Source: Thermoleophilia bacterium
GTDB taxonomy: Bacteria; Actinomycetota; Thermoleophilia; Gaiellales; JAICJC01
Direction of reading: 5' to 3'
NCBI GenBank assembly: GCA_025934255.1
Contig: JAICYJ010000005.1
Coordinates: 3,876-67,875 of the forward strand
Length of the DNA: 64,000 nt
In this document: one piece after another, positions 3,719-36,295 of the stretch
Numbering within the stretch: the stretch's first letter is position 1
Layout of the letters: the number at the start of each line of letters is the position of its first letter
Made by a program: the position numbers and the translations under genes
The notes under the pieces: generated by a model
The model's database searches: none
What the model was told of the DNA's origin: nothing
The model's input: only the letters and a program-made list of their open reading frames with translations

Positions 3719-5164
3719 ATGTTCAGCCTCGACACCGGCCGCGACGTGCTCACTACCGACCAGCTCGATCAGGTGCACGAGCGGGCGATGACGGTGCTCG
3801 AGGAGATCGGCACCGACGTGCGCCACCCGGCGGCGCTGGAGATGCTGGCCGGACTCGGGCAGAAGATCGACGGCGAGCGTGTCCACTGGGATCGCGAGTT
3901 CGTGATGGAGATGCTCGCCAGGGCGCCGCATGCGTTCACGCTGCGGGGTCGCAACCCCGAGCGAGCGGTGCGGCTGGGCGACTCAAAGCCGGTGCTGACG
4001 CCGGTGGGCGGCTCGCCCTTCTGCTCCGACCTCGAGCGCGGACGCCGGGACGGCACCTACGCCGACCACGTCGAGCTGATCAAGATGGCGCAGGCCGCCG
4101 ACCTGATCACGTGCAACCAGAGCGGCACCGTCGAGGCCGGCGATCTCGATGAGAACAGCCGGCACATGGACATGGACTACTCGGTGCTGCGGTACTCCGA
4201 CAAGCCGCACGTCTGTTACGGCACCTCCGGGCCGAAGGCGCGGGACGCCGTCGCCCTGGCGGCGATCGCCTGCGGCGGCCGCGAGGCGATCGAGCAGACA
4301 CCGGCGCTGATGGGGATCGTCAACCCCAACAGCCCGCTGGTCTGGGACTTCCTGATGGTGGACGCGTTGTCGGAATGGGCATCGGCAGGCCAGCCGGTGG
4401 TGATCACGCCGTTCCTGCTGGCCGGGGCGACGGCGCCGATCACGATCGCCTCCGGGCTGGTGTTGAAGGTGGCGGAGGCGCTGTCGGGCGTGGCGCTGGT
4501 GCAGGCGATCCGGCCCGGTACGCCCGCGCTGTTCGGATCGTTCTTCACGGCCGTGGACATGCGCACCGGCGGCCCCGCCTTCGGCACGCCCGAGTCGGTG
4601 CTGGGGACGCTCGCCGGCGGCCAGCTGGCACGGCGCTACGGCCTCCCCTACCGGGGTGGCGGCGGCCTCTGCTCGTCGAACTCGCTGGACATGGCGTCGG
4701 CGGCGGAGACGGCCATGACGCTGTGGGCGACGATGCTGTCCGGCTCGCACCTGGTGATGCACGCCGCGGGCTGGCTGGAGGGCGGCCTGACGGCGTCGTA
4801 CGAGAAGTTCGTGATCGACCTCGAGATGCTGCGGATGTTCGCGATGATCGACGAGGGCATCGACACCAGCGAGGAGCGGTTCGCGATCGATGCGATGCGG
4901 GAGGAGGGGCCGGGCGGGATGTTCCTGGCCGCCGACCACACGCTCGCGCACTTCCGTGAGTGGATGTTCATGAGCCCGCTGTTCCGCTCGCAGGCCTACG
5001 TGACCTGGCAGAAGCAGGGCTCCGCCACCACCGCCACGCTGGCCACGGCCGAGTGGAAGAAGCTGCTGGAAAGCTACGAGGATCCCGGCATCGACCCGGC
5101 CGTCGACGAGGAGCTGCAGGAGTACATGCAGCGGCGCAGGGCCGAGATCGAGGCGGCCCTCTGA
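3719..5164 (+). CDS. mttB: Trimethylamine methyltransferase (MttB) superfamily, non-pyrrolysine, copy 1
   Basis: LEEIG, NPNSPL, ITPFLLAGATAP, GGPAFGTPE, GLPYRGGGG, HAAGWLEGGL, YEKFVID motifs; uninterrupted ORF. Confidence 0.92.
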   Translation: MFSLDTGRDVLTTDQLDQVHERAMTVLEEIGTDVRHPAALEMLAGLGQKIDGERVHWDREFVMEMLARAPHAFTLRGRNPERAVRLGDSKPVLTPVGGSPFCSDLERGRRDGTYADHVELIKMAQAADLITCNQSGTVEAGDLDENSRHMDMDYSVLRYSDKPHVCYGTSGPKARDAVALAAIACGGREAIEQTPALMGIVNPNSPLVWDFLMVDALSEWASAGQPVVITPFLLAGATAPITIASGLVLKVAEALSGVALVQAIRPGTPALFGSFFTAVDMRTGGPAFGTPESVLGTLAGGQLARRYGLPYRGGGGLCSSNSLDMASAAETAMTLWATMLSGSHLVMHAAGWLEGGLTASYEKFVIDLEMLRMFAMIDEGIDTSEERFAIDAMREEGPGGMFLAADHTLAHFREWMFMSPLFRSQAYVTWQKQGSATTATLATAEWKKLLESYEDPGIDPAVDEELQEYMQRRRAEIEAAL

Positions 5165-7503: not shown

Positions 7504-8319
7504 TCAGCTGGGCGTGATGCCGAGCCGGATCGTGTAGCCGATCAGCATCGGTCGCGGCTCGGGCAGCCGTTCCCGGGCGATGCGCGTGAGCGCGTCCATC
7601 GTCTCCTCCAGCTCCGGCGCGCGGCCTTCGAAGATCGCGGTCGGGCCTCCCAGCGAGTGGGCGAGGTCGGTCACCGCTTCCGCGTCGGCCGTCGTCTCGG
7701 CGTGGCAGTGCACCTCGCGCGCTAAGGCGAACAGCCCGCTCTCGCGCAGCCTGGCCACGTGCTCGCGCTTCGGCCACTGCGAGGCCCCGGCGTGGATGCC
7801 GAGCCGCTCCCGCGCCGCCCAGCGCACGTCGATCACCGCGGCGAAGGCCGCGTCGACCTGCGGCTCGATCACCGGCACGACGTCGTAGTCGTACGCGCCG
7901 AACACGCCGCCGGGACGGAGCACCCGCGCCACCTCGGGCAGCACCGCGGCCGGATCCATCCAGTGGAACGACTGCGCGCAGGTGACGATGTCGGCCGATC
8001 CGGCCTCGAGGCCGGTCGCATCGGCATAGGCCTCCACGAACGTGACGTTGGCTTCGGCGGTCGTCGCCCGCGCCCGGGCCAGCATCGCCGGATTCGCCTC
8101 GACGCCGACCACCCGCTCGGCGCGGGCCGCCCAGGCACGGCTCGAGAGCCCAGTGCCGCTGCCCAGGTCGACCACCAGCTGCGGCCGGCCGCCCGCGCAG
8201 CGTGTGAGCACGTCCAGCGCGACCGCCGGAGGACTGGGACGGGCACCGTCGTAATGGTCGGCGAACCCCTCGTTCGCGTACCCCGACCGCCCGATCAGAT
8301 CGCGCGAGAACGTGCTCAC
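7504..8319 (-). CDS. Class I SAM-dependent methyltransferase
   Basis: VVDLGSGTG motif I, VGVE, ADIVTCAQSFHW, RVLRPGG; GTG start 6 nt after TAGCAT. Confidence 0.88.
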   Translation of the reverse strand: MSTFSRDLIGRSGYANEGFADHYDGARPSPPAVALDVLTRCAGGRPQLVVDLGSGTGLSSRAWAARAERVVGVEANPAMLARARATTAEANVTFVEAYADATGLEAGSADIVTCAQSFHWMDPAAVLPEVARVLRPGGVFGAYDYDVVPVIEPQVDAAFAAVIDVRWAARERLGIHAGASQWPKREHVARLRESGLFALAREVHCHAETTADAEAVTDLAHSLGGPTAIFEGRAPELEETMDALTRIARERLPEPRPMLIGYTIRLGITPS

Positions 8320-8353
8320 ACCTCAATGCTAGACGGCCACTAGGATCCCGGTG

Positions 8354-8638
8354 ATGGCGGAGTACCGGATCACTTACTGGCGTGAGATCCCCTCGATGGT
8401 GACCGCCCGCGACGGTGCGGCCACGTCCAAGGCGGCGCTGCCCGACCGCTTCCAGGAGGCCATCGACGAGGCCGCCATGCGCCAGGGCATGGCCGGCTCC
8501 GACGCCTACCTGGAGCAGTGGCATCACGGAGCATGGGAGCCGGCGGACGGTACGCCCGACGAGCTGGTCGCCACCCTCTCGGAGCAGCTCGACAACGACT
8601 ACGACGCGGCGCGCCTGGAATCGCTGCTGGAGGTGTGA
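8354..8638 (+). CDS. Small conserved protein of the so-called 'virulence factor' (PF13769-like) family
   Basis: YWREIPSMV...LPDRFQEAIDEAAM...SDAYLEQW pattern; translationally coupled to the Hcy methyltransferase; start 8351 or 8354. Confidence 0.72.
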   Translation: MAEYRITYWREIPSMVTARDGAATSKAALPDRFQEAIDEAAMRQGMAGSDAYLEQWHHGAWEPADGTPDELVATLSEQLDNDYDAARLESLLEV

Positions 8639-9540
8639 TGGAACAGATCGCAACACTGCTGGGAGACACGCGGCCGGCGCTCAGCGACGGTGCCATCGGC
8701 ACCATGCTGCAGGCGGCCGGTCTCATGCCCGGCGCCTCCCCCGAGATCTGGAACGTCGAGCGGGCCGACGCCATGCGCGTGATCCACACCGCCTACGCCG
8801 ACGCCGGCGCGCGCCTGCTCACCACCAACACCTTCGGCGGCACCCGCCCTCGCCTGGCCCTGCACGGCCACGAGGATCGCGTGCACGAGCTGAACGAGGC
8901 CGGAGCCCGCATCGCCCGCGACGTGGCGGACGGCTGCGATGCGCTGGTGCTCGGCAGCATCGGCCCCACCGGCGACCTGATGGAGCCGCTGGGGCTGCTC
9001 AGCCACGACGACGCCGTCGACCTGTTCGCCGAGCAGGCCGGCGGCCTGGCCGCCGGCGGCGCCCACATCCTGCTGTTCGAGACGTTCAGCGACCTGGGCG
9101 AAGTGCGCGCCGGCGTCGAGGGGGCGCACCGCGCCGCACCCGACCTGCCCGTGGCCGTGACCATGACCTTCGACCTGAAGGGCCACACGATGATGGGTGT
9201 CAGCCCGTCCCAGGCGCTGGCCGAGATATCCGCGCTCGACGTCGAGCTGATCGGCGGCAACTGCGGCAGCGGGCCCGACGAGATCGAGGCCGTGATGGTG
9301 ACCATGTCCGCCGAGCGTCCGGACGGCGTGCTGCTGCTCGCTCAGAGCAACGCCGGCCTGCCGCAGCTGGTCGGCGACGAGTTCCGCTACGGCGGCACGC
9401 CGGAGGTGATGGCCGACTACGCCGTGCGCATGCAGGAGCTCGGTGTCGACGTGATCGGTTCATGCTGCGGCAGCACGCCCTCGCACACGGCCGCGATGCG
9501 CGAGGCGCTCGGCCTGCACGTCCAGACCGCGCGTGGATGA
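8638..9540 (+). CDS. Homocysteine S-methyltransferase domain protein (stand-alone MetH N-terminal/Bmt-like)
   Basis: LSDGAIGT, TTNTFG, GSIGP, LFETF, Zn ligands GGNCG and GSCCGS, SNAGLP. Confidence 0.9.
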   Translation: MEQIATLLGDTRPALSDGAIGTMLQAAGLMPGASPEIWNVERADAMRVIHTAYADAGARLLTTNTFGGTRPRLALHGHEDRVHELNEAGARIARDVADGCDALVLGSIGPTGDLMEPLGLLSHDDAVDLFAEQAGGLAAGGAHILLFETFSDLGEVRAGVEGAHRAAPDLPVAVTMTFDLKGHTMMGVSPSQALAEISALDVELIGGNCGSGPDEIEAVMVTMSAERPDGVLLLAQSNAGLPQLVGDEFRYGGTPEVMADYAVRMQELGVDVIGSCCGSTPSHTAAMREALGLHVQTARG

Positions 9541-9546
9541 TTGAAT

Positions 9547-9735
9547 CTAGCCCTCGATCGTGATCGACATGGTCGGGCACGCGTCCGCGGCCGCCTCCAC
9601 CTCGTCGCGCAGCGACTCGTCCACGGCCGCCTGGTAGCGCAGCTCCTGCGGCGACACCAGCTGGAACACCTCCGGGCACTCGATCATGCACTGCCCGTGG
9701 TGCTGGCAGGTCCGCTCGTCCACCACAACCCTCAT
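9547..9735 (-). CDS. P450-associated [3Fe-4S]-type ferredoxin
   Basis: CQHHGQC (CxxHxxC)...ACP; 62 aa; ATGA overlap with the P450 stop. Confidence 0.88.
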   Translation of the reverse strand: MRVVVDERTCQHHGQCMIECPEVFQLVSPQELRYQAAVDESLRDEVEAAADACPTMSITIEG

Positions 9736-10949
9736 CGCACGCGCTCTCGGTCGAACGCGATCGGCAGCTCCACCGGCCCCGTCAGCCCGCTCACGGGCCG
9801 CACCACCGGCTCCGCGGTGTAGCGCGGGTTCGGCATCCGGCGCGCGATCAGCGGTAGCGCCTCGCGCATGTCGATCCGTGCCAGCCAGTGCCCGATGCAG
9901 TGGTGCGCACCGCCGCCGAACCCGAAGTGGGGCGGCCGCTCGGCGGTGATGTCGAACCGCCCGTCCTCGCCCACCGCCAGCGGGTCGGTGTTGGCCGGGT
10001 ACGACAGCAGGTGCAGCGTGGTGCCCTCGGGCAGCGCCAGCCCGCCGAACTCCATGTCCTCGGTGGTGCGCCGCGTCGCCCACATCACCGTCGGGTTCCA
10101 GCGGATCAGCTCCTCGACCGCGTTCGGCGCCAGCTCCGGCCGCTCGGCCAGAAGCGCGCACTGGTCGGGGTGCTCGACGAACAGCTGCATCGCCAGCCCC
10201 AGCTGGTTCTTGGTCGTGTCCATCCCCCCGAACACGATCAGCGACACCATCGCCAGCAGCTCGATGTCCGACAGCGACCCCTGCTCGGCGTCGTGCGCCT
10301 GCACCAGGCTCGAGACGACGTCGTCGCGCGGCCGCACCCGCCGGTCGGCGATCAGCTCCTCCGACACCGCATACAGGTTCTGCAGCGCGTCCTCGATCCG
10401 GCCCTGGTGCTCGCGGATCGTGACGCCGAACGACAGCCCCAGGTCGGTCGACCATCGCGCCAGGTCGTGCCAGCGCGCCTCGTCCATGCCGATCAGCTTG
10501 CACAGCACCCGCGCAGCGTACGGCTCCGCGAACTGCGAGACGAACTCGCAGCTGCCCGCGGCCGCGTAGGCGTCGATCAGCTCGTCGGCCAGCGCCCGGA
10601 ACTCCGGGCCCATCCGCTCGATCAGCGTCCGCGAGAAGGCCGGGTTGGCCAGCTTGCGCAGCCGCCGGTGGTCGTCGCCCTCCTTGCTGAGCATGATCTC
10701 GGCCCACCATTCCGACAGCAGCCCCTGCTCGATGCCGTTCTGGGCCGGCCAGGCAAAGCTGCCCTGCCGCAGCCGCCGGTCCTTCAGAAGCGCGCTCACC
10801 TCGTCGTAGCGCAGCACCGCCAGGCCGAAGTTGGTGCGCGCCCACCAGCTCTGCTCGCGCGCCGCGGCCACGGCCGCGGACGAGGCCGAGAAGAACGGAT
10901 CCGAGATGTCGAACGACGGGACATCGGCGGTGTCGATCGAGAGCGTCAT
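9732..10949 (-). CDS. Cytochrome P450, CYP151 (PipA/MorA)-like
   Basis: FGGMDTT I-helix, EELIR, FGFGGGAHHCIG heme motif; GLAVLRY, LRQGS.AWPA.NG, FAEPYAARV, TERPPHFG-type segments recall CYP151A. Confidence 0.9.
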   Translation of the reverse strand: MTLSIDTADVPSFDISDPFFSASSAAVAAAREQSWWARTNFGLAVLRYDEVSALLKDRRLRQGSFAWPAQNGIEQGLLSEWWAEIMLSKEGDDHRRLRKLANPAFSRTLIERMGPEFRALADELIDAYAAAGSCEFVSQFAEPYAARVLCKLIGMDEARWHDLARWSTDLGLSFGVTIREHQGRIEDALQNLYAVSEELIADRRVRPRDDVVSSLVQAHDAEQGSLSDIELLAMVSLIVFGGMDTTKNQLGLAMQLFVEHPDQCALLAERPELAPNAVEELIRWNPTVMWATRRTTEDMEFGGLALPEGTTLHLLSYPANTDPLAVGEDGRFDITAERPPHFGFGGGAHHCIGHWLARIDMREALPLIARRMPNPRYTAEPVVRPVSGLTGPVELPIAFDRERVR

Positions 10950-10965
10950 GCCCCGGGATTCTGCC

Positions 10966-12405
10966 TCAGTCGCCAAGCTCTTTCCGGCGCCGGGTGACGT
11001 AGTCGGCCAGCTCCTGGCGCAGCTCCGGGTTGATCGCAGGCGGCTCGTACTGCTCCAGCCGCTCGCGCCAGATCTCGCCGGCCCGCGCGGTCGCGTCGTG
11101 CTCGCCCAGCCGCTTCCAGCGCTCGAAGTTCTCCGTCGACGACAGCAGCGGCCGGTAGAAGCAGTCGCGGAACCGCTCCAGCGTGTGCGCCGCGCCCAGG
11201 AAGTGCCCACCCGGGCCGACCTCCTCGTGCGCCCCGAATGCGAGCGAGGCCTCGTCCACCTCGAGCGGGGTGAACTCGACCTTCAGCATCCGCAGCACCT
11301 CGACGTCGACGATGAACTTCTCGTAGCACGAGACCAGGCCCGACTCCAGCCAGCCGGCCGAGTGCATGACCCAGTTGGTGCCGGCCAGGAAGGTCGGGAT
11401 CATGGTCATGCAGGCCTCGTAGGCCGACTGCGCGTCGACCGTCTGGCTGGACGTGAAGCCGCCGCCCGACCGCCACGGCAGCCCGAAGTGACGCGCGATC
11501 TGGCCGGTGCAGAACAGGCCGGTGGCCGACTCCGGCGTGCCGAAGCTGGGCGACCCCGACTGCATGTCGGTGTTCGAGAGGAACGACCCGAAGATCACCG
11601 GCGCGCCCGGCCGCAGCAGCTGCGCCAGCGCGATCCCCGCCAGCGCCTCGGCCATCTGCTGGACGAGCGCCGCCGGGATCGTCACGGGCGACATCGCCCC
11701 CATCAGCAGGAACGGCGTGATCACGACCGGCTGGCCGGCGCGCACGTACTCGAACATGGCCGCCAGCATGCGGTCGTCGTAGCGCAGGGGCGAATTGACG
11801 TTGATCAGCGCGATCACGCCCGGCGTGCGCTCGATCGACTCGCGGCCGCCGAGCAGCATCTCGGTCATGCGCAGCGAGTCGGCCGCATTGGGCCCTGAAG
11901 TGACGGATCCCATGTAGGGCTTGTCGGTCAGGGTCTGCAGCGCGAACACCATGTCCAGGTGGCGGGAGTCGAGCGGCCGGTCGTTGGGCTCGCAGATGGT
12001 GCCGCCGGCCGAGTCGAGCTCGTCGAAGGACTGGGACAGCATGGTGAACCGCTCGAAGTCCTGCATCGTGGCGTCGCGGCGGACGTCGCCCTCGCGCACG
12101 AACGGCGGCCCGTAGACCGACGCGAATGCCATGTGATCGCCGCCGATGTGGATGCTGTGCTCCGGGTTGCGGGCCTGCACGTCGAACTCGTGCGGCGCCT
12201 TCGCCACCTGCTCGAGCACGAAGTCGGGGTCGAGGAAGACCTTGTCGCCGTCGGTCTTCTGGCCGGCCTGGGCGAACACCTCGACCGCCTCCGGCAGGAT
12301 GAACTCGACGCCGATCTCCGAGACGATCCGCCGCCAGCCCGCATCCAGGGTGACGATCGCCTGCTCTGACAGAATCTCGTAGCGCGGCATCCGGTTGACG
12401 AACAT
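10966..12405 (-). CDS. mttB: MttB superfamily methyltransferase, non-pyrrolysine, copy 2
   Basis: NVNSPL, ITPFLLMGAMSP, SGSPSFGTPE, GLPWRSGGG, HSAGWLESGL, YEKF; GAGAGG RBS before ATG 12405. Confidence 0.92.
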   Translation of the reverse strand: MFVNRMPRYEILSEQAIVTLDAGWRRIVSEIGVEFILPEAVEVFAQAGQKTDGDKVFLDPDFVLEQVAKAPHEFDVQARNPEHSIHIGGDHMAFASVYGPPFVREGDVRRDATMQDFERFTMLSQSFDELDSAGGTICEPNDRPLDSRHLDMVFALQTLTDKPYMGSVTSGPNAADSLRMTEMLLGGRESIERTPGVIALINVNSPLRYDDRMLAAMFEYVRAGQPVVITPFLLMGAMSPVTIPAALVQQMAEALAGIALAQLLRPGAPVIFGSFLSNTDMQSGSPSFGTPESATGLFCTGQIARHFGLPWRSGGGFTSSQTVDAQSAYEACMTMIPTFLAGTNWVMHSAGWLESGLVSCYEKFIVDVEVLRMLKVEFTPLEVDEASLAFGAHEEVGPGGHFLGAAHTLERFRDCFYRPLLSSTENFERWKRLGEHDATARAGEIWRERLEQYEPPAINPELRQELADYVTRRRKELGD

Positions 12406-12417
12406 TCGTCCTCTCCC

Positions 12418-12451
12418 TAAGATCTTAATATGTGGAACGATCGTTCCACAT
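12418..12451. promoter_or_regulatory. Divergent promoter with perfect 22-bp palindrome (candidate IclR operator)
   Basis: ATGTGGAACGATCGTTCCACAT (12430-12451) is a perfect palindrome; TAAGATCTTA (12418-12427) gives a TAAGAT -10 on both strands. Confidence 0.7.
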
Positions 12452-13232
12452 GATGAGTCGAAAAGCAATGACCGGAACCCAGGCGATCGATCGTGCCGCC
12501 CAGCTGCTCGTCCTCGTCGTCGAGAACGAGTCGTCGAGCAGCGTCGGCGAGCTGGCCGAGGCGGCCGGACTTCCCAAGAGCACCGTATCGCGCGCAGTGT
12601 CGGCGCTCGAGCGGCAGGGCCTGGTGCAGCGAAGCAGCGCCCGCGGCAGCATCCGTCCGGGGCCGGTGCTGCTGGGCCTGGCCCGGCGCGGCGTCGGCGA
12701 GCAGGACATCGCCGAGCTGTGCCGCGAGGCGCTCGAAAACCTGGCCGACGCCACCGGCGAGACCGTCGACCTGGCGGTCGCCGTGCCCGGCGGCTCCGAG
12801 CAGTACATCGCCCAGGTCGACAGCCGCCACATCCTGGGCACCACCAACTGGGTGGGACGGCGCCTGCCCCACCACTGCACCGCGGTCGGCAAGGTGCTGG
12901 TCGCGTTCGGCGCGGCGCGCCTGCAGCGGGGCGCGCTGGAGCGGCTCACGCCGGACACCATCACCGATCGCGACACGCTGTCGGCAGAACTGGATACGGT
13001 GCGGGCATGCGGATATGCGACCGCCGTGGGCGAGCTGGAGCCGGGCTTGGTGGCCGTTGCGGCGCCGGTGCTTGACGCCGACGGCCGGGCGGTGGCAGCG
13101 ATCAGCATCTCGGGGCCGCAGTTCCGGATACCGAGCGATCGGCTGGACGGGTTTGGCAAACTCCTGACGAAGGAGACGGAAACGCTTTCGGCGCGCCTGG
13201 GATACCGGCCGGCCGGGGAGGGAGCAGCATGA
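12450..13232 (+). CDS. IclR family transcriptional regulator
   Basis: QAIDRAAQLL HTH, GLPKSTVSR, GETVDL, LPHHCTAVGK, ELEPGLVAVAAPV, AISISGP. Confidence 0.9.
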   Translation: MMSRKAMTGTQAIDRAAQLLVLVVENESSSSVGELAEAAGLPKSTVSRAVSALERQGLVQRSSARGSIRPGPVLLGLARRGVGEQDIAELCREALENLADATGETVDLAVAVPGGSEQYIAQVDSRHILGTTNWVGRRLPHHCTAVGKVLVAFGAARLQRGALERLTPDTITDRDTLSAELDTVRACGYATAVGELEPGLVAVAAPVLDADGRAVAAISISGPQFRIPSDRLDGFGKLLTKETETLSARLGYRPAGEGAA

Positions 13233-13897
13233 CCACCGACGAGATCCTGCAAGGCCTGTTCGACAACACGCTGATCGGAAACGCGCCGGCCGTCAAGGAC
13301 CTCACCAACGAGGGCCTGGCCATGGGCATGGACCCCGAGACGCTGCTCTACGACGCCCTGATCCCGTCGCTGGAGGAGGTGGGCGCCCGCTTCGAGCGCG
13401 GCGACTTCTTCGTCCCGGAGATGCTGATTGCCGCGCGGGCAATGCAGGGCGCGCTGGACATCCTGCGCCCACTGCTGGCAGAGACCGGCGCCAAGCCGAT
13501 CGGCACGTTCGTGATGGGCACCGTCAAGGGCGACGTGCACGACATCGGCAAGAACCTGGTCAACATCATGCTCGAGGGCGCCGGCTTCACCGTCTACGAC
13601 CTGGGCGTGAACGTGGCGCCTGAGAAGTTCGTGGAGCAGGTGCAGGAGCACGAGCCGGACATCGTCGGCTTCTCGGCCTTCCTGACCACCACCATGCCGA
13701 TGTTCAAAGCCAACATCAACGCGCTCGAGAAGTCGGGCCTGCGCGACCGCGTGATCGTGATGGTGGGCGGCGCGCCGGTGACCCAGGAGTACGCCGACGC
13801 GGTCGGCGCCGACGGCTACGCCGCCGACGCGTCCACCGCGGTGCGCCTCGCCAAGGCCCTGATCGAGAACCGCCGATCGGCGGCTGCGCCGGCATGA
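13229..13897 (+). CDS. Cobalamin-binding corrinoid protein (MttC/MtgC/MetH cap plus B12 domain)
   Basis: FERGDFFVPEM cap; GTVKGDVHDIGKN (DxHxxG), DLGVNV, SAFLTTTM, VGGAPV. Confidence 0.93.
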   Translation: MTTDEILQGLFDNTLIGNAPAVKDLTNEGLAMGMDPETLLYDALIPSLEEVGARFERGDFFVPEMLIAARAMQGALDILRPLLAETGAKPIGTFVMGTVKGDVHDIGKNLVNIMLEGAGFTVYDLGVNVAPEKFVEQVQEHEPDIVGFSAFLTTTMPMFKANINALEKSGLRDRVIVMVGGAPVTQEYADAVGADGYAADASTAVRLAKALIENRRSAAAPA

Positions 13898-14775
13898 CCC
13901 AGGCCGTCTCCGACCGGTTGCGGTCGCTGGCCGCCACGGCCAGCATCGAGGTGACGCCGCGCCACGCGGCCGCCGTGACCGAGCTCGACGGCGTGTTGCC
14001 CGCCGGGACATCGGTCTACATCACGGCGCTTCCCGGAGCCGACCCGTTCGACCTGGTGACGGCTGCCGCGACCATCCGCGCCGCCGGCCACGTGCCGGTG
14101 CCGCACCTGACGGCGCGCGCCATCGCCGGCGACGAGGCGCTGGATGCGCTGCTCTCGCAGCTCCGCGAGCGCGCCGTGGTCGACGACGTGCTCGTGATCG
14201 CGGGCGGAGGGGCGACCGTCGTCGGCGACTACCACAGCTCCATGGACGTGCTGCGGTCGGGCCTGCTGGAGCGGCACGGCATCATTCGCGCCGGCGTCGC
14301 CGGGCACCCCGAGGGCAGCCCCGACATCTCACCCGAAGCGATCCTCGAGGCCCTGGTCGAGAAGAACGCCTTTGCCGCCGCATCGGCGATCGAGCTTCGC
14401 ATCGTCAGCCAGTTCGCGCTGGCCGCCGAGCCCTACGTGGCGTGGGAGCGCGGGCTGCGCGAGGCGGGAAACCGGCTGCCGGTGGTGGCAGGCATCCCCG
14501 GCGTGACCTCGCCTCCGTCGCTGCTCAAGTTCGCGCTGGCCTGTGGCATCGGCCCCTCCGTGGAGGTGCTCCGCAAGCAGTCGGGCGGGTTGCTGAAGCT
14601 GGCAACGACCCGGCTGTGGCGGCCCGACCAGCTGGCCGAGGGCATCGCCCGGTCGACCGTCGACGATCCCGGCAGCCTGATCCAGGGGCTGCACCTGTTC
14701 CCCTTCGGCGGGGTCGAGCGGTCGGCCCGATGGCTGGCCGAGATGCGCACCGCGCCGGCCGCGGTGTCGGCATGA
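13894..14775 (+). CDS. metF: Methylenetetrahydrofolate reductase family protein
   Basis: SIEVTP, VYITAL, VPHLTAR, VAGHPEG, IVSQF, GLHLFPFGG. Confidence 0.78.
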   Translation: MTQAVSDRLRSLAATASIEVTPRHAAAVTELDGVLPAGTSVYITALPGADPFDLVTAAATIRAAGHVPVPHLTARAIAGDEALDALLSQLRERAVVDDVLVIAGGGATVVGDYHSSMDVLRSGLLERHGIIRAGVAGHPEGSPDISPEAILEALVEKNAFAAASAIELRIVSQFALAAEPYVAWERGLREAGNRLPVVAGIPGVTSPPSLLKFALACGIGPSVEVLRKQSGGLLKLATTRLWRPDQLAEGIARSTVDDPGSLIQGLHLFPFGGVERSARWLAEMRTAPAAVSA

Positions 14776-14793
14776 GAGCCGAAAGGACGCGGA

Positions 14794-15666
14794 ATGCAGA
14801 CCACCATTGAGTCGCGGTCACGCACGGTCGTGATCGGGGACGGCGCGCCGTTCTGCGTGATCGGCGAGCGCATCAACCCCACAGGCCGAAAGGCGTTCCA
14901 GGCGCAGCTGCAGGCCGGCGACCTGTCCCAGCTCGAGATCGACGTGGCCGAGCAGGTGGCCGGCGGCGCCGACGTGCTGGACGTCAACGTGGGCGATCCG
15001 CTGGCCGACGAGATCGAGCTGATGCGGGCGGCCGTGCCGATGGTGCAGGGCCTGACCGACCTGCCGCTGTGCATCGACTCCTCCATCATCGAGGCGCTCG
15101 AGGCCGGCCTGGGAGCCTACGAGGGAAAGGCGCTGGTCAACTCGGTCACCGGCGAGGACGAGCGGCTGAACCTGATCCTGCCGATCGTGGCCCGCCACGG
15201 TGCTGCGGTGATCGGCCTCGCCAACGATGACGAGATCCCGATGGAGCCGGAGCGGCGGCTGGAGGTGGCCCGCAAGATCGTCTCGGTCGCCGGCGACCAC
15301 GGCATCCCGCCGCAGGACGTCGTGATCGATCCGCTGGCGATGCCGGTCGGCGCCGAGCCGCGCGCGGTCACGCTGTTCCTGGAGACGGTGCGGCTGATCC
15401 GCGACAACCTGGGCGTGAACATGACCTGCGGCGCCAGCAACACCTCGTTCGGGCTGCCCGGCCGCCACGCCCTGGGCGCCGCCTTCCTGGCCGTCTCGCA
15501 GAGCCACGGGCTGACCAGCGCCATCATGGACGCGCGCGCCCGCGAGTGCGTCGAGTCGGTGCGAGCCACCGACTTCCTGCTCGGCCAGGACGAGTGGGGC
15601 GCCCGCTGGATCGCCGCGCACCGGGCCAAGCTGGCCGCCCAGGCCGCGCAGGCCGCGACAAGCTAG
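14794..15666 (+). CDS. Pterin-binding methyltetrahydrofolate:corrinoid methyltransferase (MetH pterin domain/AcsE-like)
   Basis: VIGERINPTG, LDVNVG, LCIDSS, LVNSV, IDPL, CGASNTSFGLP. Confidence 0.88.
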   Translation: MQTTIESRSRTVVIGDGAPFCVIGERINPTGRKAFQAQLQAGDLSQLEIDVAEQVAGGADVLDVNVGDPLADEIELMRAAVPMVQGLTDLPLCIDSSIIEALEAGLGAYEGKALVNSVTGEDERLNLILPIVARHGAAVIGLANDDEIPMEPERRLEVARKIVSVAGDHGIPPQDVVIDPLAMPVGAEPRAVTLFLETVRLIRDNLGVNMTCGASNTSFGLPGRHALGAAFLAVSQSHGLTSAIMDARARECVESVRATDFLLGQDEWGARWIAAHRAKLAAQAAQAATS

Positions 15667-15668
15667 CC

Positions 15669-17528
15669 GTGTCGGTGAACGCCGAGACGATCGAGCCAGG
15701 CACCGGCCGCGTCCGGCTGACGTTCGCGCCCGACGGCGGCGAGGTGCGCGTGCCGGCCGGCACCACCGTGTTCGACGGGGCCAGCTGGAACGGCATCGCC
15801 ATCGACTCGACCTGCGGCGGCCACGGCACCTGCAAGAAGTGCAAGGTGCGGATCACCGACGGCGATGTGCCGGTCGACACGCTGGATCCGCGCGCCTTCA
15901 GCCCCGACGAGCTGCGCGGCGGCTGGCGGCTGGCCTGCCGCGCGATCGCCACCCACGACCTCGCCGTCGAGGTGCCGCCGCTGCAGACCCGCCCCAAGGC
16001 GGCGCTGGTCGGCGTCGGCCGCCACGTGATCCTGCGCCCGTCCGTGCAGAAGCGCTACCTGGAGCTGAAGGAGCCGTCGCTGGAGGACCAGGCGTCCGAC
16101 ATGGAGCGCGTGGTCCATGCCGTCGAGGACTTCGAGCTGCGGGTGGAGCTGGGCGCCGCTCGCGGCATCGGCCGCACCCTGCGGTCGTCCGACTTCAAGG
16201 TCACTGCCGTCATCTGCGACGACGTGCTGATCGACGTCGAGCCCGGTGACACCACCGAGCGGCGCCACGCGATCGCCTTCGACCTGGGCACGACCACGGT
16301 GGTGGCGACGCTGCTCGACCTCGCCACCGGCCAGCCGCTGGCCGTGCGCTCGATGCTGAACCGCCAGCAGCCGTTCGGCGCCGACGTGATCTCGCGCGTG
16401 TCGGCCACGATGATGGACCCGGACGCGCTGGAGATGCTGCAGCAGCGGGCGCATGAGACGATGAACGGCCTCGCCGGCGAGGTCTGCGAGGAGGCCGGCC
16501 TGTCACCGGCGGAGGTGTACGAGATCGTGGTCTGCGGCAACGTCACGATGATGCAGCTGGCGCTGGGCATCGACCCCGAGCCGCTGGGCATGTCGCCGTT
16601 CATCATCACCGCCCGGCGGCTGCCGCCGGCGGTTGCCTCCGACTTCGGCGTGCGCGTGCACCCGCGCGCGCCGGCCGCCGTGTTTCCCGCTCTGGGCGCC
16701 TACGTGGGCGGAGACATCGTGGCCGGCATGCTCGCCACCGGCCTCACCCGCGACCGCCGCGTGCGCCTGTTCATCGACGTCGGCACCAACTCCGAGATCG
16801 CACTCGGTTCCAGCGAGCGGGTGGTCGCGACCGCCGCACCGGCCGGCCCCGCCTTCGAGGCCGCCCAGATCCGCTGCGGCATGCGCGCCGCTGAGGGCGC
16901 GATCGAGGGCGTCGCGATCAGCGGCGAGGAGATGACGCTGGAGGTGATCGGCGACGCCGCGCCGGTCGGCATGTGCGGCTCCGGGCTGGTGGATGCGGTC
17001 GCCCAGCTGGTGTCGGCGGGCCTGCTCGACCACTCCGGCCGCTTCATCCCCGACGAGGACGCCGCCGAGCTGCACCCGCAGCTGAGCACGCGGCTGGTGA
17101 AGGTGGGCGAGGAGCGGGTGTTCGTGCTGGCATGGCGCGGAGACGACCCAGCGAACGCGATCTACCTGTCGCAGCGCGACGTGCGCGAGCTGCAGTTCGC
17201 CAAGGCCTCGATCGCGACCGGATGGCGGATATTGATCAAGGAGCTCGGCCTGGACGAGGACGAGATCACCCAGGTGCTGCTGGCCGGCAGCTTCGGCAGC
17301 TACCTCTCGCCGGCCAGCGCCGTGCGCATCGGCCTGGTGCCGAAGCTGGCGCTGCCGCGCATCATCTCGGCCGGGAACGTGGCCGGCGAGGGCGCCAAGA
17401 TGGCGGCGCTGTCGCTGCGGGAGCGGGCGGCAGCCGACGCCATCCTGGATGAGGTCGAGTACGTGGAGCTGTCCGGGCGGGCAGACTTCAACGACATGTT
17501 CATGGACGAGCTGGCGTTCCCGGGATGA
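15669..17528 (+). CDS. ASKHA (DUF4445/RACo/RamA-like) ATP-dependent corrinoid reductive activase with N-terminal 2Fe-2S
   Basis: CGGHGTCKKC...RLAC; FDLGTTT, FGADVISR, DVGTNSE, AGPAFE, GMCGSG, DVRELQFAK, LAGSFG. Confidence 0.9.
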   Translation: MSVNAETIEPGTGRVRLTFAPDGGEVRVPAGTTVFDGASWNGIAIDSTCGGHGTCKKCKVRITDGDVPVDTLDPRAFSPDELRGGWRLACRAIATHDLAVEVPPLQTRPKAALVGVGRHVILRPSVQKRYLELKEPSLEDQASDMERVVHAVEDFELRVELGAARGIGRTLRSSDFKVTAVICDDVLIDVEPGDTTERRHAIAFDLGTTTVVATLLDLATGQPLAVRSMLNRQQPFGADVISRVSATMMDPDALEMLQQRAHETMNGLAGEVCEEAGLSPAEVYEIVVCGNVTMMQLALGIDPEPLGMSPFIITARRLPPAVASDFGVRVHPRAPAAVFPALGAYVGGDIVAGMLATGLTRDRRVRLFIDVGTNSEIALGSSERVVATAAPAGPAFEAAQIRCGMRAAEGAIEGVAISGEEMTLEVIGDAAPVGMCGSGLVDAVAQLVSAGLLDHSGRFIPDEDAAELHPQLSTRLVKVGEERVFVLAWRGDDPANAIYLSQRDVRELQFAKASIATGWRILIKELGLDEDEITQVLLAGSFGSYLSPASAVRIGLVPKLALPRIISAGNVAGEGAKMAALSLRERAAADAILDEVEYVELSGRADFNDMFMDELAFPG

Positions 17529-18103
17529 CGACGGCCGTGATCGCATGCGGCGCGCTCGCCTTGCACGTGAACGCCATCGCCGAGCGGCGCGGCTGGGAGA
17601 TCGACGTGCACCCGCTGCCGCCCGAGCTGCACAACCGCCCGGAGCAGATCGCGCCCGCCGTCGGCCGTCTGCTGGACGAGCTGGCCTGCCGCTACCAGCG
17701 CGTGGCGGTCGCCTACGCCGACTGTGGCAGCTACGGCGCGCTCGACCAGGAGCTCCGCCGGCGCGGCGTCGAGCGGCTGGAGGGCGACCACTGCTACGAC
17801 GTGTTCGCGAAGCCGGAGGTGGCGGAGGCGATGGCCGAGCAGCCCGGCACCTACTTCCTGACCGATTTCCTGGCGCGCACCTTCGACCGCACGGTCTGGC
17901 GGTCGCTCGGCCTCGACCGCCATCCCGAGCTGCGCGACGACTACTTCCACTCCTACACCCGCGTCATCTGGCTGGCGCAGCGGCGCACGCCCGAGCTGCT
18001 GGAGCTGGCCGAGCGGGTGGCGGCCATGCTGGGGCTGCCGCTGGAGGTGCGCGACGTGGGCGAGTCGGGGCTGGAGGCACAGCTGGAGCGGCTGGCGGGA
18101 TGA
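17525..18103 (+). CDS. DUF1638 domain protein
   Basis: VIACGAL, LHNRPE, AYADCGS, DHCY, YFLTDF pattern; coupled to RACo. Confidence 0.78.
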   Translation: MTTAVIACGALALHVNAIAERRGWEIDVHPLPPELHNRPEQIAPAVGRLLDELACRYQRVAVAYADCGSYGALDQELRRRGVERLEGDHCYDVFAKPEVAEAMAEQPGTYFLTDFLARTFDRTVWRSLGLDRHPELRDDYFHSYTRVIWLAQRRTPELLELAERVAAMLGLPLEVRDVGESGLEAQLERLAG

Positions 18104-19230
18104 GCGACGCGACCTCGATGCGCGCGGCGCTGCTGCCCGCTCCGGGCACGCCGCTGCGCGTGGTCGAGCTCGACCTGGCCGCGCCCGGCCCCGGTGAGGT
18201 GCTGGTGCGGCTGCGCTCCAGCGGCGTCTGCCAGGACGACCTGAATCTGCTCGACGGCACGGTCGACGTGCCTGCCCCGGTCGTGCCCGGCCACGAGGGT
18301 GCCGGCGTCGTCGAGGCGCTGGGCGAGGGCGTTCAGGGGCTTGCGCCCGGCGACCACGTGGCGCTGTCCTGGGCCCCCTACTGCGGCAGGTGCGAGGAGT
18401 GCCTGCGCGACCTGCCGCACCTGTGCGGCACGGCCTGGCCGCTGATGCTGGCCGGCGGCCTGCTCGACGGCACCACCCGGCTCCGCTTCGGCGGGGCGGA
18501 GGTGCACCACTACTGCTTCCTGTCCACCTTCGCGGAGCGCGCGGTGGTGCCGGCCCGGTCGTGCGTCCAGATCCCGGCCGACGTGCCGTTCGAGGTGGCG
18601 GCGCTGCTCGGCTGTGCGGTGACCAGCGGCGTCGGCGCCGTCTGGCGCACCGCCGGCGTGCGGCCGGGAGAGCGGGTGGCGGTGATCGGCACCGGCGGCA
18701 CCGGGCTCTCGGCCGTGATGGGCGCGGTCGCCTCGGGTGCGTCGCAGGTGATCGCCGTCGACCGCCGGCACGAGCGCCTCGAGCGCGCCCAGCAGCTCGG
18801 GGCAAGCGCCGTCGTGGTGTGGCAGGGTGAGCCGGAGCAGGTGGCCGAGGCCGTGGTGTCGGCCAGCGGCGGCGGCGTCGACTACGCCATCGACTGCACC
18901 GGGCGGCCCGGTCCGATGCGGGCCGCGTTCCTGTCCACGCGCAAGCGGGGAGCGGCCGTGATGGCCGGCATCCCGCGCGCCGAGGCCGAGCTGACGGTGC
19001 CGGCGCGGTCGATCCCGCGCATGGAGCGACGGGTGCTGGGATCGATCTACGGGTCGGCCCGGCCCGACCGCGACTTCCCGCTGATCCTCGACGCCTACCG
19101 GCGGGGACGGCTGCCGCTCGATCGGCTGATCTCACACCGGCTGAGCCTGGACGAGGTCGGCGTCGGCATCGACGCCGTGCGCTCGGGCGATGCAACGCGG
19201 GTGGTGCTCGACCTGGGAGGCGACGCGTGA
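18100..19230 (+). CDS. Zn-dependent medium-chain alcohol/aldehyde dehydrogenase
   Basis: GVCQDD, GHEGAG, structural Zn CGRCEECLRDLPHLC, LGCAV, GTGGTG. Confidence 0.88.
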   Translation: MSDATSMRAALLPAPGTPLRVVELDLAAPGPGEVLVRLRSSGVCQDDLNLLDGTVDVPAPVVPGHEGAGVVEALGEGVQGLAPGDHVALSWAPYCGRCEECLRDLPHLCGTAWPLMLAGGLLDGTTRLRFGGAEVHHYCFLSTFAERAVVPARSCVQIPADVPFEVAALLGCAVTSGVGAVWRTAGVRPGERVAVIGTGGTGLSAVMGAVASGASQVIAVDRRHERLERAQQLGASAVVVWQGEPEQVAEAVVSASGGGVDYAIDCTGRPGPMRAAFLSTRKRGAAVMAGIPRAEAELTVPARSIPRMERRVLGSIYGSARPDRDFPLILDAYRRGRLPLDRLISHRLSLDEVGVGIDAVRSGDATRVVLDLGGDA

Positions 19231-20179: not shown

Positions 20180-20623
20180 GATGGCGTCGCGGAGCGCGAG
20201 CCGTTGGGCCCGCCTCTGATCGGGGCGCTGCTGCGCATGCCCGTCGACGCGGTGCGGCGGCGAATGATCGAGCGGCTGCACGAGCACGGGTTCGACGACA
20301 TCGACCAGGCCCACCTCACCGTGCTGCGCTATCCCGGCCCGCAGGGCCGGCGCCCGTCCGACCTGGCGGCGGAGTTGGGCATGAGCAAGCAGGCGCTCAA
20401 CTATCAGCTGGGCGAGCTGGAACGGCGCGGCTATCTCGAGCGCCGGCCCGACCCCGAGGATCTCCGCTCCCGGCGGATCGTGCTGACACGGCGCGGCGTC
20501 GCCGCTGCCCACGTGATCCGTGACGCCGTGGCCGAGCTCGAGACGCTGTGGGCGCGGGAGCTGGGAGCGAAGCGGTACGCGCAGCTGCGGGGCCTGCTGG
20601 TCGAGCTCAACCGCGTGATCTAA
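20147..20623 (+). CDS. MarR family transcriptional regulator
   Basis: SDLAAELGMSKQA, LERRGYLERRPDPEDLRSRRIVLT winged helix. Confidence 0.88.
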   Translation: MNQETSSSRFTDGVAEREPLGPPLIGALLRMPVDAVRRRMIERLHEHGFDDIDQAHLTVLRYPGPQGRRPSDLAAELGMSKQALNYQLGELERRGYLERRPDPEDLRSRRIVLTRRGVAAAHVIRDAVAELETLWARELGAKRYAQLRGLLVELNRVI

Positions 20624-26841: not shown

Positions 26842-26888
26842 GTGGTCTCTCCCGCGCAGGTGCGCGTGGGGGTTGCCGGGAGGGCTCC

Positions 26889-26917
26889 GGTCTGGTAGAC
26901 AACTCATATATCAGACC
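26889..26917. promoter_or_regulatory. Imperfect inverted repeat in the divergent dmg/gntR promoter (candidate GntR operator)
   Basis: GGTCTGGTAGA-N7-TATATCAGACC; 9 of the outer 11 positions pair. Confidence 0.5.
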
Positions 26918-36248: not shown

Positions 36249-36295
36249 TGAGCCCCCATAATACGGTCGCACCGAGTCCACCAGGAGGAGCAGCG

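Follow-up and report, generated by a model that had tools for sequence, protein, structure and literature searches.

A P450-ferredoxin gene pair next to mttB within a predicted aerobic betaine-demethylation cluster of a soil Gaiellales bacterium

Results

Gene organization around mttB_A

The window, a stretch of 64 kb that was analyzed as a whole, belongs to a soil actinobacterium of the order Gaiellales, and carries on its minus strand the gene mttB_A followed by the genes of a cytochrome P450 and a ferredoxin (Table 1). A previous sequence-only reading described these three genes as tightly linked behind an IclR palindrome, and direct inspection of the minus strand confirmed this arrangement; the start codon of the ferredoxin gene overlaps the stop codon of the P450 gene as ATGA, and both products are predicted to be translationally coupled. 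The next gene, which encodes a homocysteine methyltransferase (SMT), is convergent on the ferredoxin gene and their stop codons are 6 nt apart. No intrinsic terminators or other terminator-like sites were found between positions 9300 and 12700, and no promoter-like sites were found on the minus strand within the mttB_A, P450 and ferredoxin genes. Given the 16-nt gap that follows mttB_A and the lack of a detectable promoter or terminator, the spacing suggests that one transcript, started at the IclR-operated promoter, covers mttB_A and the P450 and ferredoxin genes. Neither Rfam nor tRNA scans gave a hit in the window.

Table 1. Features of the mttB_A region (positions in the window)
Feature	Position	Strand	Evidence and remarks
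Small PF13769 protein	8351..8638	+	Always ahead of the homocysteine methyltransferase gene
S-methyl_trans, BHMT/MtgE-like homocysteine methyltransferase (SMT)	8518..9540	+	PF02574, E=9e-62; NF005718, 299 bits
3Fe-4S-type ferredoxin, 62 aa	9547..9735	-	ATG 9735-9733; TAG ends at 9547
CYP151-family P450, 405 aa	9732..10949	-	ATG 10949; TGA 9734-9732; p450 PF00067, E=1e-16
mttB_A-P450 spacer	10950..10965	-	16 nt
mttB_A	10966..12405	-	ATG at 12405, preceded by GGGAGAGGA; TGA 10968-10966 (strand read directly)
Perfect 22-nt palindrome, putative IclR operator	12430..12451		ATGTGGAACGATCGTTCCACAT; between mttB_A and divergent iclR
IclR-family regulator	12432..13232	+	PF09339 and PF01614; divergent from mttB_A
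MtgC-like corrinoid (B12-binding) protein	13229..13897	+	PF02310 and PF02607; NF047996 MtgC, 209 bits
Divergent MTHFR-like protein, MetF2 position	13894..14775	+	PF02219, E=1e-4; placed as in Ruegeria mtgD-metF2 (PMC12478193)
MtgD/MtgA-like methyl-THF:corrinoid methyltransferase, pterin-binding	14794..15666	+	PF00809; NF005719, 294 bits (cutoff 259)
RACo/RamA-type reductive activase of corrinoid proteins, 2Fe-2S and ASKHA	15546..17528	+	PF14574, PF17651, PF17650, PF00111
DUF1638 protein, corrinoid-system accessory	17525..18103	+	PF07796; PMC12478193
Class III Zn alcohol/formaldehyde-dehydrogenase-like (ADH)	18109..19230	+	End of the divergent operon

The ferredoxin carries the CxxHxxC...CP motif, of which the CxxHxxC part had been noticed before (MRVVVDERTCQHHGQC...ACP, read as CQHHGQC...ACP in the translation), and it matches Fer4_13 (E=7.5e-11) and Fer4_15 (E=8.4e-10) of Pfam as well as the ferredoxins 1siz and 8amp of the PDB (E about 1e-4 to 1e-5). 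Its single-cluster fold of about 60-70 aa, its motif and the position of its gene immediately after that of the P450 are those of the 3Fe-4S ferredoxins that serve as P450 partners in Actinomycetota, and the P450 and the ferredoxin are paired in every context examined. The statement that no ferredoxin reductase gene is present in the window is essentially right; the sole candidate, a generic Pyr_redox_2 gene at 60306..61511, was rejected as the missing reductase because its matches are weak and non-specific and it lies 50 kb away. In NCBIfam its product is matched, weakly, by pyridine nucleotide-disulfide oxidoreductase families only; no ferredoxin reductase model recognizes it.

A conserved palindrome core upstream of mttB_A

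The arms of the putative operator, ATGTGGAACGA and TCGTTCCACAT, are 100% self-complementary, and its core, GGAAC-N4-GTTCC, occurs only once in the 64-kb window. The exact palindrome GGAACGATCGTTCC was discarded as a conserved operator, given that it is present in none of 77 loci. When the pattern was relaxed to GGAAC-N4-GTTCC after inspection of the sequences, it was found upstream of mttB_A in 53 of 75 orthologous loci, out of a total of 58 occurrences in their 575 kb, a placement that is far beyond chance. The iclR gene adjoining mttB_A is also conserved in the metagenome loci.

The corrinoid methyl-transfer cluster

The core formed by iclR, the divergent mttB_A, and the genes for the corrinoid protein, the MTHFR-like protein, the pterin-binding methyltransferase, the RACo activase and the DUF1638 protein is conserved over 80 metagenome loci, in which MttB_A is 75-99% identical. 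The true start of the activase gene is probably near 15666. Aerobic demethylation of glycine betaine by MtgB/MtgC/MtgD(/MtgE), together with a split methionine synthase, has been demonstrated experimentally in Ruegeria pomeroyi (Mausz et al. 2025, PMC12478193). According to Pfam and NCBIfam, the parts list of an MtgBCD(E) system is complete in the window: the corrinoid protein, the pterin-binding methyltransferase, the MetF paralogue, the RamA-type activase and the DUF1638 protein are encoded at 13229-18103, and the homocysteine module at 8518-9540. The earlier reading regarded a Co(I) system in one operon with an O2-requiring P450 as unusual; this conflict does not hold, since an aerobic MtgBCD(E) system with RamA and DUF1638 is established in R. 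pomeroyi (PMC12478193) and every component is encoded here.

Predicted substrate of MttB_A

MttB_A (479 aa) is a full-length protein of the MTTB family (PF06253, E=7e-184, residues 3-478). Its reading frame is uninterrupted, with no in-frame amber (Pyl) codon, and it scores 267 bits against the Pyl-MttB equivalog model TIGR02369, below the cutoff of 525 bits. From its sequence, MttB_A is assigned to the non-pyrrolysine MttB superfamily, and is probably a betaine:corrinoid methyltransferase. It is 41% identical to MtgB of D. hafniense (PDB 2qne/9yce), in which R312 and H348 bind the carboxylate of the substrate; the Arg at position 312 is conserved in all the characterized members that act on acidic quaternary amines (PMC13080624). 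MttB_A keeps Y98, R312 and H348, and so do all 80 orthologues, whether or not their loci carry the P450. The full glycine betaine motif of MtgB includes Y97, F356, R312 and H348, and three of these four are found in MttB_A, where Gly replaces F356 and a Trp is present at 352; its GWLE(S/G)GL motif is also found in PDB 4yyc.

Since R312 and H348 are retained, an acidic betaine is the likely substrate, and not dimethyl-pyrrolidinium; the non-acidic N,N-dimethyl pyrrolidinium or piperidinium compounds that were proposed previously are at odds with the carboxylate-binding residues of MtgB (PMC13080624). Glycine betaine is the leading candidate, with other betaines possible, among them a stachydrine-like betaine whose N-methyl cyclic product might conceivably then be taken by the P450. 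Other catabolic genes in the window (DgcA/DgcB-like, ETF, DMGDH-like and MSOX-like) point to the pathway from glycine betaine to dimethylglycine, sarcosine and glycine.

The P450 belongs to the CYP151 family

The P450 has intact motifs, i.e. the heme-thiolate loop FGFGGGAHHCIG (FGGGAHHCIG), EELIR (ELIR), and the I-helix GGMDTT. Its best match in the PDB is AurH (CYP151A), with 266 bits versus 180 for the next, and an identity of 38-39%. The named CYP151C1 and CYP151C2 sequences were obtained from supplement file 2 of PMC8197338, and the comparison comprised these two proteins and AurH. The P450 is 45.0% identical over 400 aa to CYP151C1 from Salipiger profundus, which itself is only 37.7% identical to AurH, and 47.0% identical over 355 aa to CYP151C2. 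By the Nelson rule, a family requires more than 40% identity to a named member and a subfamily more than 55%; the identity to CYP151C1/C2 thus places the P450 in CYP151, whereas values below 55% to AurH and C1/C2 leave it in neither subfamily A nor C, so that by this rule it would represent a new CYP151 subfamily. Of the likeness to PipA (AAD28344.1) and MorA (AAV54064.1) claimed before, the affinity to CYP151 is borne out through C1/C2 (45-47%), but a place in subfamily A is not (39% with AurH); the P450 does not fall outside CYP151, the finding that would have spoken against that claim.

Distribution and history of the mttB_A-P450 linkage

Sequence downstream of the mttB_A orthologue is present in 64 metagenome loci, and the P450-ferredoxin pair is found there in four of them, all with MttB_A at least 90% identical. 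Two of the loci that lack the P450 (L055 and L069) have the SMT gene directly after mttB_A, convergent and 11-21 nt apart. P450 orthologues were also detected in about 20 other Gaiellales genomes with no mttB nearby. A search for the adjacency elsewhere, as had been suggested, therefore speaks against a conserved mttB-P450 pairing. A literature search for MttB together with a P450 found nothing relevant.

The arrangement of the window (class A) is present in several independent assemblies (L007, L008, L032, L013, L041-L044). In class-B relatives the homology to the window breaks immediately past the mttB_A stop codon, at the spacer. Compared with one of these, L011, the window shows 96.3% and 95.4% DNA identity in the flanks and only 83.0% in the P450-ferredoxin segment, and in L011 the same slot additionally holds a 468-aa glutamine-synthetase-like (GS-like) gene and an SBP_bac_3 gene. 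Between the window and L011, dS is 0.12 for MttB_A and 0.50 for the P450, which indicates an exchange of the cassette; the corresponding figures for L013, 0.47 and 0.44, point to a long co-inheritance of the adjacency. The dN/dS of the P450 is 0.22-0.27; the cassette is under purifying selection and has co-diverged with mttB_A. A deeper link between the P450 and the homocysteine methyltransferase, considered on account of an SMT::methyltransferase fusion located by class-D P450s, was rejected; the fusion shares just 24% identity with the SMT of the window and is hence a different paralogue.

The recurrent partner of the P450 orthologues is a GS-like gene, in Gaiellales, Streptomyces, Gordonia, Ruegeria and Paracoccus. 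It is found by the P450 relatives of class B (L004, L010, L011), of L012, and of four plasmid loci (S. clavuligerus pCLA1, Gordonia pGKT2, and plasmids of Ruegeria and Paracoccus). A tblastn search across all 64 kb of the window detected no GS-like sequence (best E=0.17), and consequently the gamma-glutamyl route cannot run from this locus alone. Searching the literature for GS-like enzymes with P450s was unproductive.

Discussion

The reading that we favor is that an accessory amine-oxidation P450 cassette was captured into an IclR-controlled aerobic betaine-demethylation operon, so that two known modules are juxtaposed; taken as a whole, we consider it somewhat more probable than improbable. 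MttB_A would demethylate an acidic quaternary amine and load the methyl group onto the MtgC-like protein in its Co(I) state, and the MtgD-like enzyme would pass it to tetrahydrofolate for oxidation by the MetF2-like enzyme; alternatively, the MtgE-like enzyme could transfer it to homocysteine. Oxidized corrinoid would be re-reduced by the RACo/RamA-type activase and the DUF1638 protein. In one Gaiellales sublineage, the P450-ferredoxin pair was inserted into the space that separates the stop codon of mttB_A from the convergent homocysteine methyltransferase gene; it would be expressed on the mttB_A transcript from the IclR-operated promoter, and a ferredoxin reductase encoded elsewhere would supply the P450 with electrons. 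As in other CYP151 enzymes, the P450 may hydroxylate the carbon adjacent to the amine nitrogen, so that the amine is N-dealkylated or its C-N bond is cleaved. The probable substrate is an alkylamine or a cyclic amine, possibly gamma-glutamylated, catabolized under the same conditions as the betaine. We read the P450 as accessory to the MttB system and not an intrinsic part of it; a metabolic link with the substrate of MttB_A, if any, is one that we infer. The gene linkage is real yet confined to one lineage, with no evidence of new chemistry, and the proposed mttB-P450 pathway is weakly supported. Nevertheless, the adjacency kept over a dS of about 0.45, and the presence of a P450 cassette in the slot of both classes, could equally reflect a real metabolic dependence on MttB_A.

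An alternative is a hybrid, sequential N-demethylation, in which MttB_A removes the first methyl of a betaine by the corrinoid route and the P450 oxidatively removes another from the tertiary-amine product, for instance from dimethylglycine to yield sarcosine and formaldehyde. The presumed single transcription unit under one regulator, the alpha-carbon hydroxylation beside nitrogen that is typical of CYP151A, and the ADH gene that ends the divergent operon would fit this scheme. However, the ADH was rejected as a P450-specific formaldehyde sink given that it also occurs in loci without the P450 (L048, L053, L064), the DgcA/DgcB-like, DMGDH-like and MSOX-like enzymes already provide demethylation in the window, and the GS-like partners of the P450 need primary or secondary amines; we regard this alternative as unlikely.

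In the two-step route of the earlier reading, taken as obligate, a cyclic quaternary amine (stachydrine-like or N,N-dimethyl-pyrrolidinium/piperidinium) would lose a methyl group to MttB_A, and the P450 would then open the ring of the product or N-demethylate it; we regard this route as very unlikely. It draws on the tight linkage and probable co-transcription of the genes, on the co-divergence of the adjacency with mttB_A, on a very weak hint from a proline-racemase-family gene near a class-C P450 orthologue, and on membership in CYP151, whose subfamily A takes pyrrolidine, piperidine and morpholine as substrates (PMC9477822, PMC10382289). Against it, the P450 is absent from 60 of the 64 mttB_A loci while the active-site residues of MttB_A are invariant, mttB is missing from the neighborhood of most P450 orthologues, and R312 and H348 speak for a substrate with a carboxylate, which rules out simple dimethyl-pyrrolidinium or piperidinium (PMC13080624). 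The DgcA/DgcB-like, ETF, DMGDH-like and MSOX-like genes also suggest that it is glycine betaine that is broken down.

That the cassette is a neutral hitch-hiker in a permissive site, without a role tied to the locus or decaying after the loss of its GS-like and SBP genes, would suit its insertion exactly between two convergent stop codons, the variable presence of GS and SBP among the cassettes of close relatives and the recombinational exchange, but it is decidedly improbable in view of the intact catalytic motifs, the low dN/dS, and the class A arrangement retained in independent assemblies with P450 and mttB_A co-diverging.

As it stands, the locus represents an annotation refinement and not a discovery. 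It is improbable, in our opinion, that one IclR-controlled transcript couples two chemistries of opposite mechanism, the Co(I)-corrinoid first demethylation of a betaine and the O2-dependent dealkylation or ring opening of the tertiary-amine product by the P450; if it did, this corrinoid-then-P450 route would be a hybrid not described for any quaternary amine, and the CYP151C-like P450s, an uncharacterized clade, would gain a function and their first physiological substrate. Should the P450 act on what MttB_A produces, an aerobe would for the first time be seen to treat a methylated amine with a corrinoid methyltransferase and a P450 in succession. Whether or not that link exists, the aerobic MtgBCD(E)-type system, described recently from marine α-proteobacteria, is both widespread among soil Actinomycetota and tightly clustered there, its clusters carry a conserved putative IclR operator, and close relatives exchange alternative amine-catabolic cassettes in a slot at the 3' end of mttB.

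Comparison with known systems

At the family level the P450 is similar to PipA and MorA-MorB-MorC (CYP151A, which act on secondary cyclic amines) and to CYP151C1/C2 of the Roseobacter group, and as in the mycobacterial and Roseobacter-group systems, a small 3Fe-4S-type ferredoxin gene is located immediately downstream. A GS-like gene is part of the mycobacterial CYP151 operon pipA-fdx-glnA (PMC10516948), and of the operon in close relatives of the window P450. Unlike the mycobacterial systems, the window has neither a reductase gene equivalent to morC nor a GS-like gene, and the gene upstream is mttB.

P450-bearing clusters for gamma-glutamyl-alkylamide catabolism are represented by ipu in Pseudomonas sp. 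KIE171 and pip in Pseudomonas sp. KU43P. In gene content, relatives of the window P450 resemble them, being accompanied by GS-like ligases (class B, L012, S. clavuligerus, Gordonia, Ruegeria, Paracoccus), a glutamine amidotransferase or gamma-glutamyl hydrolase (Gaiellales L002, Ruegeria, Paracoccus), solute-binding proteins (class B, L002, Ruegeria) and aldehyde dehydrogenases (L002, Paracoccus); in contrast, the window copy is without the genes for ligase, hydrolase and binding protein, which it either lost or never acquired.

The P450 WP_014924762 of the cyp151C-glnA::xplB-xplA region on pGKT2 of Gordonia sp. KTR9, whose gene was reportedly named "cyp151C" by Indest et al. 2010, is 53-55% identical to the window P450. 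A GS-like sequence with 53% identity to the class-B GS comes after it, and ahead of it lies a GntR/FCD regulator, which Gaiellales class C also has in that position; unlike the window, that locus is plasmid-borne and linked to the RDX-degrading XplA/XplB, with no ferredoxin gene and no corrinoid system.

The R. pomeroyi system (PMC12478193) has the parts list of the window; it shares with it a non-Pyl MttB-family methyltransferase, a separate B12-binding protein, a pterin-binding methyltransferase with an adjoining MetF paralogue gene, a RamA/RACo activase, DUF1638, a BHMT-like homocysteine module and an aerobic host. The window differs in that it is actinobacterial (Gaiellales), with a substrate that is only predicted, with all the parts grouped around one IclR regulator, and with a P450-ferredoxin pair inside the predicted mttB transcription unit.

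Organization of the operon and its control region

Read directly, the minus strand carries mttB_A (the mttB gene of the operon), the P450 gene and the ferredoxin gene (fdx), and this reading bore out all the structural statements of the sequence-only reading. The products match the Pfam families MTTB (E=7e-184), p450 (E=1e-16) and Fer4_13/Fer4_15; the translated ferredoxin includes the motif CQHHGQC...ACP, and its gene ends 6 nt from the stop codon of the convergent homocysteine methyltransferase gene (SMT). No terminator-like sites, and no promoter-like sites on the minus strand, were found within the three genes. The inverted repeat (T)GTGGAAC-N4-GTTCCAC(A) is located upstream of mttB_A in 53 of 75 loci (window 12430..12451 and the surveyed loci L041-L120), and is nearly absent elsewhere in 575 kb. 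This conserved repeat is the phylogenetic footprint of a putative IclR operator, which would control a corrinoid methyltransferase regulon.

Features of the window
Feature	Position	Strand	Remarks
Second non-Pyl mttB	3719..5164	+	Gly at the MtgB Y97 position
Oxidored_FMN/OYE-type Fe-S flavoprotein, 698 aa	5164..7260	+	DgcA/TMADH-like architecture; directly after second mttB
Class I SAM methyltransferase	7504..8319	-	divergent from PF13769-SMT pair; conserved in related loci
PF13769 ('Virulence_fact') protein, 95 aa	8351..8638	+	convergent on fdx
BHMT/MtgE-like homocysteine methyltransferase (SMT)	8518..9540	+	convergent on fdx
fdx	ATG 9735-9733, end 9547	-	ATGA overlap with P450 stop
P450	ATG at 10949, stop 9734-9732	-	16 nt after mttB_A
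mttB_A	12405..10966	-	GGGAGAGGA precedes ATG; TGA stop
Perfect 22-nt palindrome	12430-12451		between mttB_A and divergent iclR
MtgC-like corrinoid protein		+	downstream of iclR
Divergent MTHFR-like protein	13894..14775	+	between corrinoid protein and pterin methyltransferase; Pfam MTHFR E=1e-4 only
Pterin-binding methyl-THF:corrinoid methyltransferase		+	downstream of iclR
RACo/RamA-type reductive activase		+	downstream of iclR
DUF1638		+	downstream of iclR
Class III ADH-like		+	downstream of iclR
DgcB-like CCG/4Fe-4S protein	20620..22869	-	
ETF subunit	23561..24325	-	
DAO+GCV_T DMGDH/SARDH (dimethylglycine/sarcosine-dehydrogenase)-like enzyme	24322..26907	-	
Serine/threonine dehydratase	27560..28456	+	
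MSOX/N-methyltryptophan-oxidase-like enzyme	36248..37462	+	
Encapsulin shell protein	50022..50825	-	Linocin_M18 E=3e-79

Assignment of the P450 to a family

The best PDB match of the P450 is by far AurH (3p3l/3p3o; 266 bits, the next reaching 180), a protein listed under CYP151A (PMC7369989) that is 38-39% identical to it. The named CYP151C1 and CYP151C2, whose sequences were taken from a paper supplement, show 45.0% and 47.0% identity to the P450 and only ~37.5% to AurH. Under the nomenclature rules of 40% for a family and 55% for a subfamily, comparison with these three proteins makes the P450 a CYP151 member, placed outside subfamilies A (judged by AurH) and C (judged by C1 and C2); the CYP151 affinity proposed earlier thus stands for the family and fails for subfamily A.

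The pairing of mttB and P450 is lineage-restricted

P450 orthologues were surveyed at 27 genome and 6 metagenome loci, all from Gaiellales/Thermoleophilia, and sort into five gene contexts. The class D operon is linked to the methyl cycle: diverging from it are genes for a fusion protein (homocysteine S-methyltransferase::class I methyltransferase), MetK, adenosine kinase and SAH hydrolase. At 24% identity the fusion protein was ruled out as an orthologue of the window's SMT.

Gene contexts of the P450 orthologues (GS, glutamine synthetase)
Class	Gene order	Loci	P450 identity to window
A	iclR<>mttB_A-P450-fdx><SMT	window, L007, L008, L032; L013	98-99%; L013, 82%
B	mttB_A-GS-like-P450-fdx-SBP_bac_3><SMT	L004/5, L010, L011	84-85%
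C	GntR<>P450-fdx-cupin	including L012, which has a GS-like gene before P450	79-83%
D	cupin-P450-fdx-unknown (308 aa); without mttB	~20 genomes (L001, L006, L016-L031, L033)	67-72%
E	glutamine amidotransferase-P450-ferredoxin reductase-SBP-fdx-SDR-aminotransferases-aldehyde dehydrogenase	L002	61%

In a second survey, covering MttB_A orthologues of 75-99% identity at 80 metagenome loci, the conserved unit was iclR<>mttB_A with the corrinoid cluster. Among the 64 loci with at least 300 nt of sequence downstream of mttB_A, only 4 have a P450 next to it, each with an MttB_A identity of at least 90%; in L055 and L069 mttB_A is adjoined at 11-21 nt by SMT, which converges on it. The P450-fdx pair was therefore inserted, within a single sublineage, between the stop codons of two convergent genes. 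The mttB-P450 pairing is lineage-restricted.

The window and L011 (class B) share 96.3% DNA identity through the final nucleotide of the mttB_A stop codon, 95.4% in the SMT flank and only 83.0% across P450-fdx (window 9517..10965; L011 8550..12120), where L011 carries an extra 1.45 kb encoding a 468-aa type III GS/gamma-glutamylputrescine-synthetase-like protein and a further 0.7 kb corresponding to SBP_bac_3. Given this sharp break and the discordant dS values (0.12 for mttB_A, 0.50 for P450), the P450 cassette appears to have been swapped by recombination between backgrounds that are nearly identical in other respects, in versions that include or lack the GS-like and SBP_bac_3 genes. Against L013, the more distant class A locus, both genes have co-diverged (dS of 0.47 for mttB_A and 0.44 for P450), pointing to an old adjacency, stably inherited within the sublineage.

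Recurrent partners of the P450 outside Gaiellales

The nearest relatives of the P450 in annotated records beyond Gaiellales are 50-57% identical to it. On S. clavuligerus pCLA1 a GS-like gene, 55% identical to the class B GS, lies directly downstream of the P450; on Gordonia KTR9 pGKT2 the P450 has a GntR/FCD regulator upstream and, downstream, a GS-like sequence that is the glnA part adjoining XplB/XplA. On a Ruegeria and on a Paracoccus plasmid alike, the P450 is accompanied by two GS-family genes and a glutamine amidotransferase; the Ruegeria plasmid adds an ABC transporter and a 2Fe-2S ferredoxin, the Paracoccus plasmid aldehyde dehydrogenases and a gamma-glutamyl-GABA hydrolase. From these four records, the recurring associate of the P450 clade is predicted to be a gamma-glutamyl-amine ligase and not MttB; a mycobacterial CYP151 operon has the order pipA-fdx-glnA (PMC10516948). 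No GS-like gene was found within the 64-kb window. On Paracoccus sp. TOH plasmid p2 (L037), tblastn revealed a P450 with 50% identity to that of the window at 7935..9110, where the plasmid table lists no gene. The gene after it encodes a CPR-like 'sulfite reductase flavoprotein alpha', so that the redox partner may be another one in Alphaproteobacteria.

The substrate of MttB_A

MttB_A shares 41% identity with D. hafniense MtgB and 43% with the second MttB of the window. In MtgB the cation of glycine betaine is held by Y97 and F356, and its carboxylate by R312 and H348 (PMC13080624). MttB_A has Y98, R312 and H348, whereas position 356 is Gly and position 352 is Trp; these five residues are invariant across 80 orthologues. 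R312 is common to every characterised member, and each of these acts on an acidic quaternary amine (PMC13080624); the substrate of MttB_A is therefore most likely a betaine with a carboxylate group, and glycine betaine, proline betaine and similar compounds are compatible. Among the cyclic substrates proposed earlier, stachydrine-like ones (proline betaine) would still fit, while the retention of R312 argues against simple N,N-dimethyl pyrrolidinium or piperidinium.

The surrounding betaine island

The window has a G+C content of ~70%, and its proteins have their closest named relatives in Gaiellales MAGs. The second mttB and the DgcA-like, DgcB-like, ETF, DMGDH/SARDH-like, MSOX-like and dehydratase genes are predicted to form a glycine betaine -> dimethylglycine -> sarcosine -> glycine island. 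The slot after the second mttB is occupied in close relatives by the 698-aa flavoprotein (97% identity) or by a different 896-aa form (82-88% to that of L004, a class B locus), and looks like another exchanged cassette. The MTHFR-like gene is the least conserved member of the corrinoid cluster among orthologous loci (60-95%), being undetected in several. In the window and all related loci the PF13769 gene is directly upstream of the MtgE-like gene; its product is probably a small subunit or accessory protein, hitherto unrecognised, of a split methionine synthase or Mtg system. For the class I SAM methyltransferase, NCBIfam gives a weak score of 45 bits (cutoff 180) against CpaM, the 'corrinoid protein-associated methyltransferase'.

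Proposed mechanism and comparison with known systems

With slightly better than even confidence we favor MtgB-type betaine demethylation accompanied by a captured CYP151 cassette. The IclR-controlled system would demethylate an acidic betaine, passing the methyl group to the corrinoid protein and then to THF or homocysteine. The P450 and its ferredoxin would serve as an accessory cassette for amine oxidation, which the mttB_A transcription unit has captured and which is expressed in response to the same inducer; the ferredoxin would be reduced by a ferredoxin reductase encoded elsewhere, and the P450 would hydroxylate the carbon adjoining the amine nitrogen of its substrate.

A hybrid scheme, sequential N-demethylation of the MttB product, seems doubtful; the DgcB-like, ETF, DAO+GCV_T, MSOX-like and dehydratase genes would already equip the window with a complete downstream pathway for both dimethylglycine and sarcosine. 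The obligate cyclic-amine route put forward in the sequence-only reading is still less probable: in the metagenome survey, mttB-P450 adjacency is limited to those four of the 64 mttB_A loci, and the class D P450s occur without mttB. Equally improbable is a neutral hitch-hiker, the catalytic motifs of the P450 being intact and its dN/dS 0.22-0.27.

No description of a P450-fdx pair embedded in an mttB operon was found in the searchable literature; both modules, the Mtg-type corrinoid system and the CYP151 P450-fdx pair, belong to known kinds. An aerobic MtgB/C/D(/E)-MetF2-RamA-DUF1638 system has been demonstrated genetically in Ruegeria pomeroyi (PMC12478193), with the same parts list as the cluster of the window. 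Given this precedent, there is nothing unusual in itself about an aerobe having a Co(I) enzyme, and the paradox earlier seen in its association with an O2-requiring P450 dissolves.
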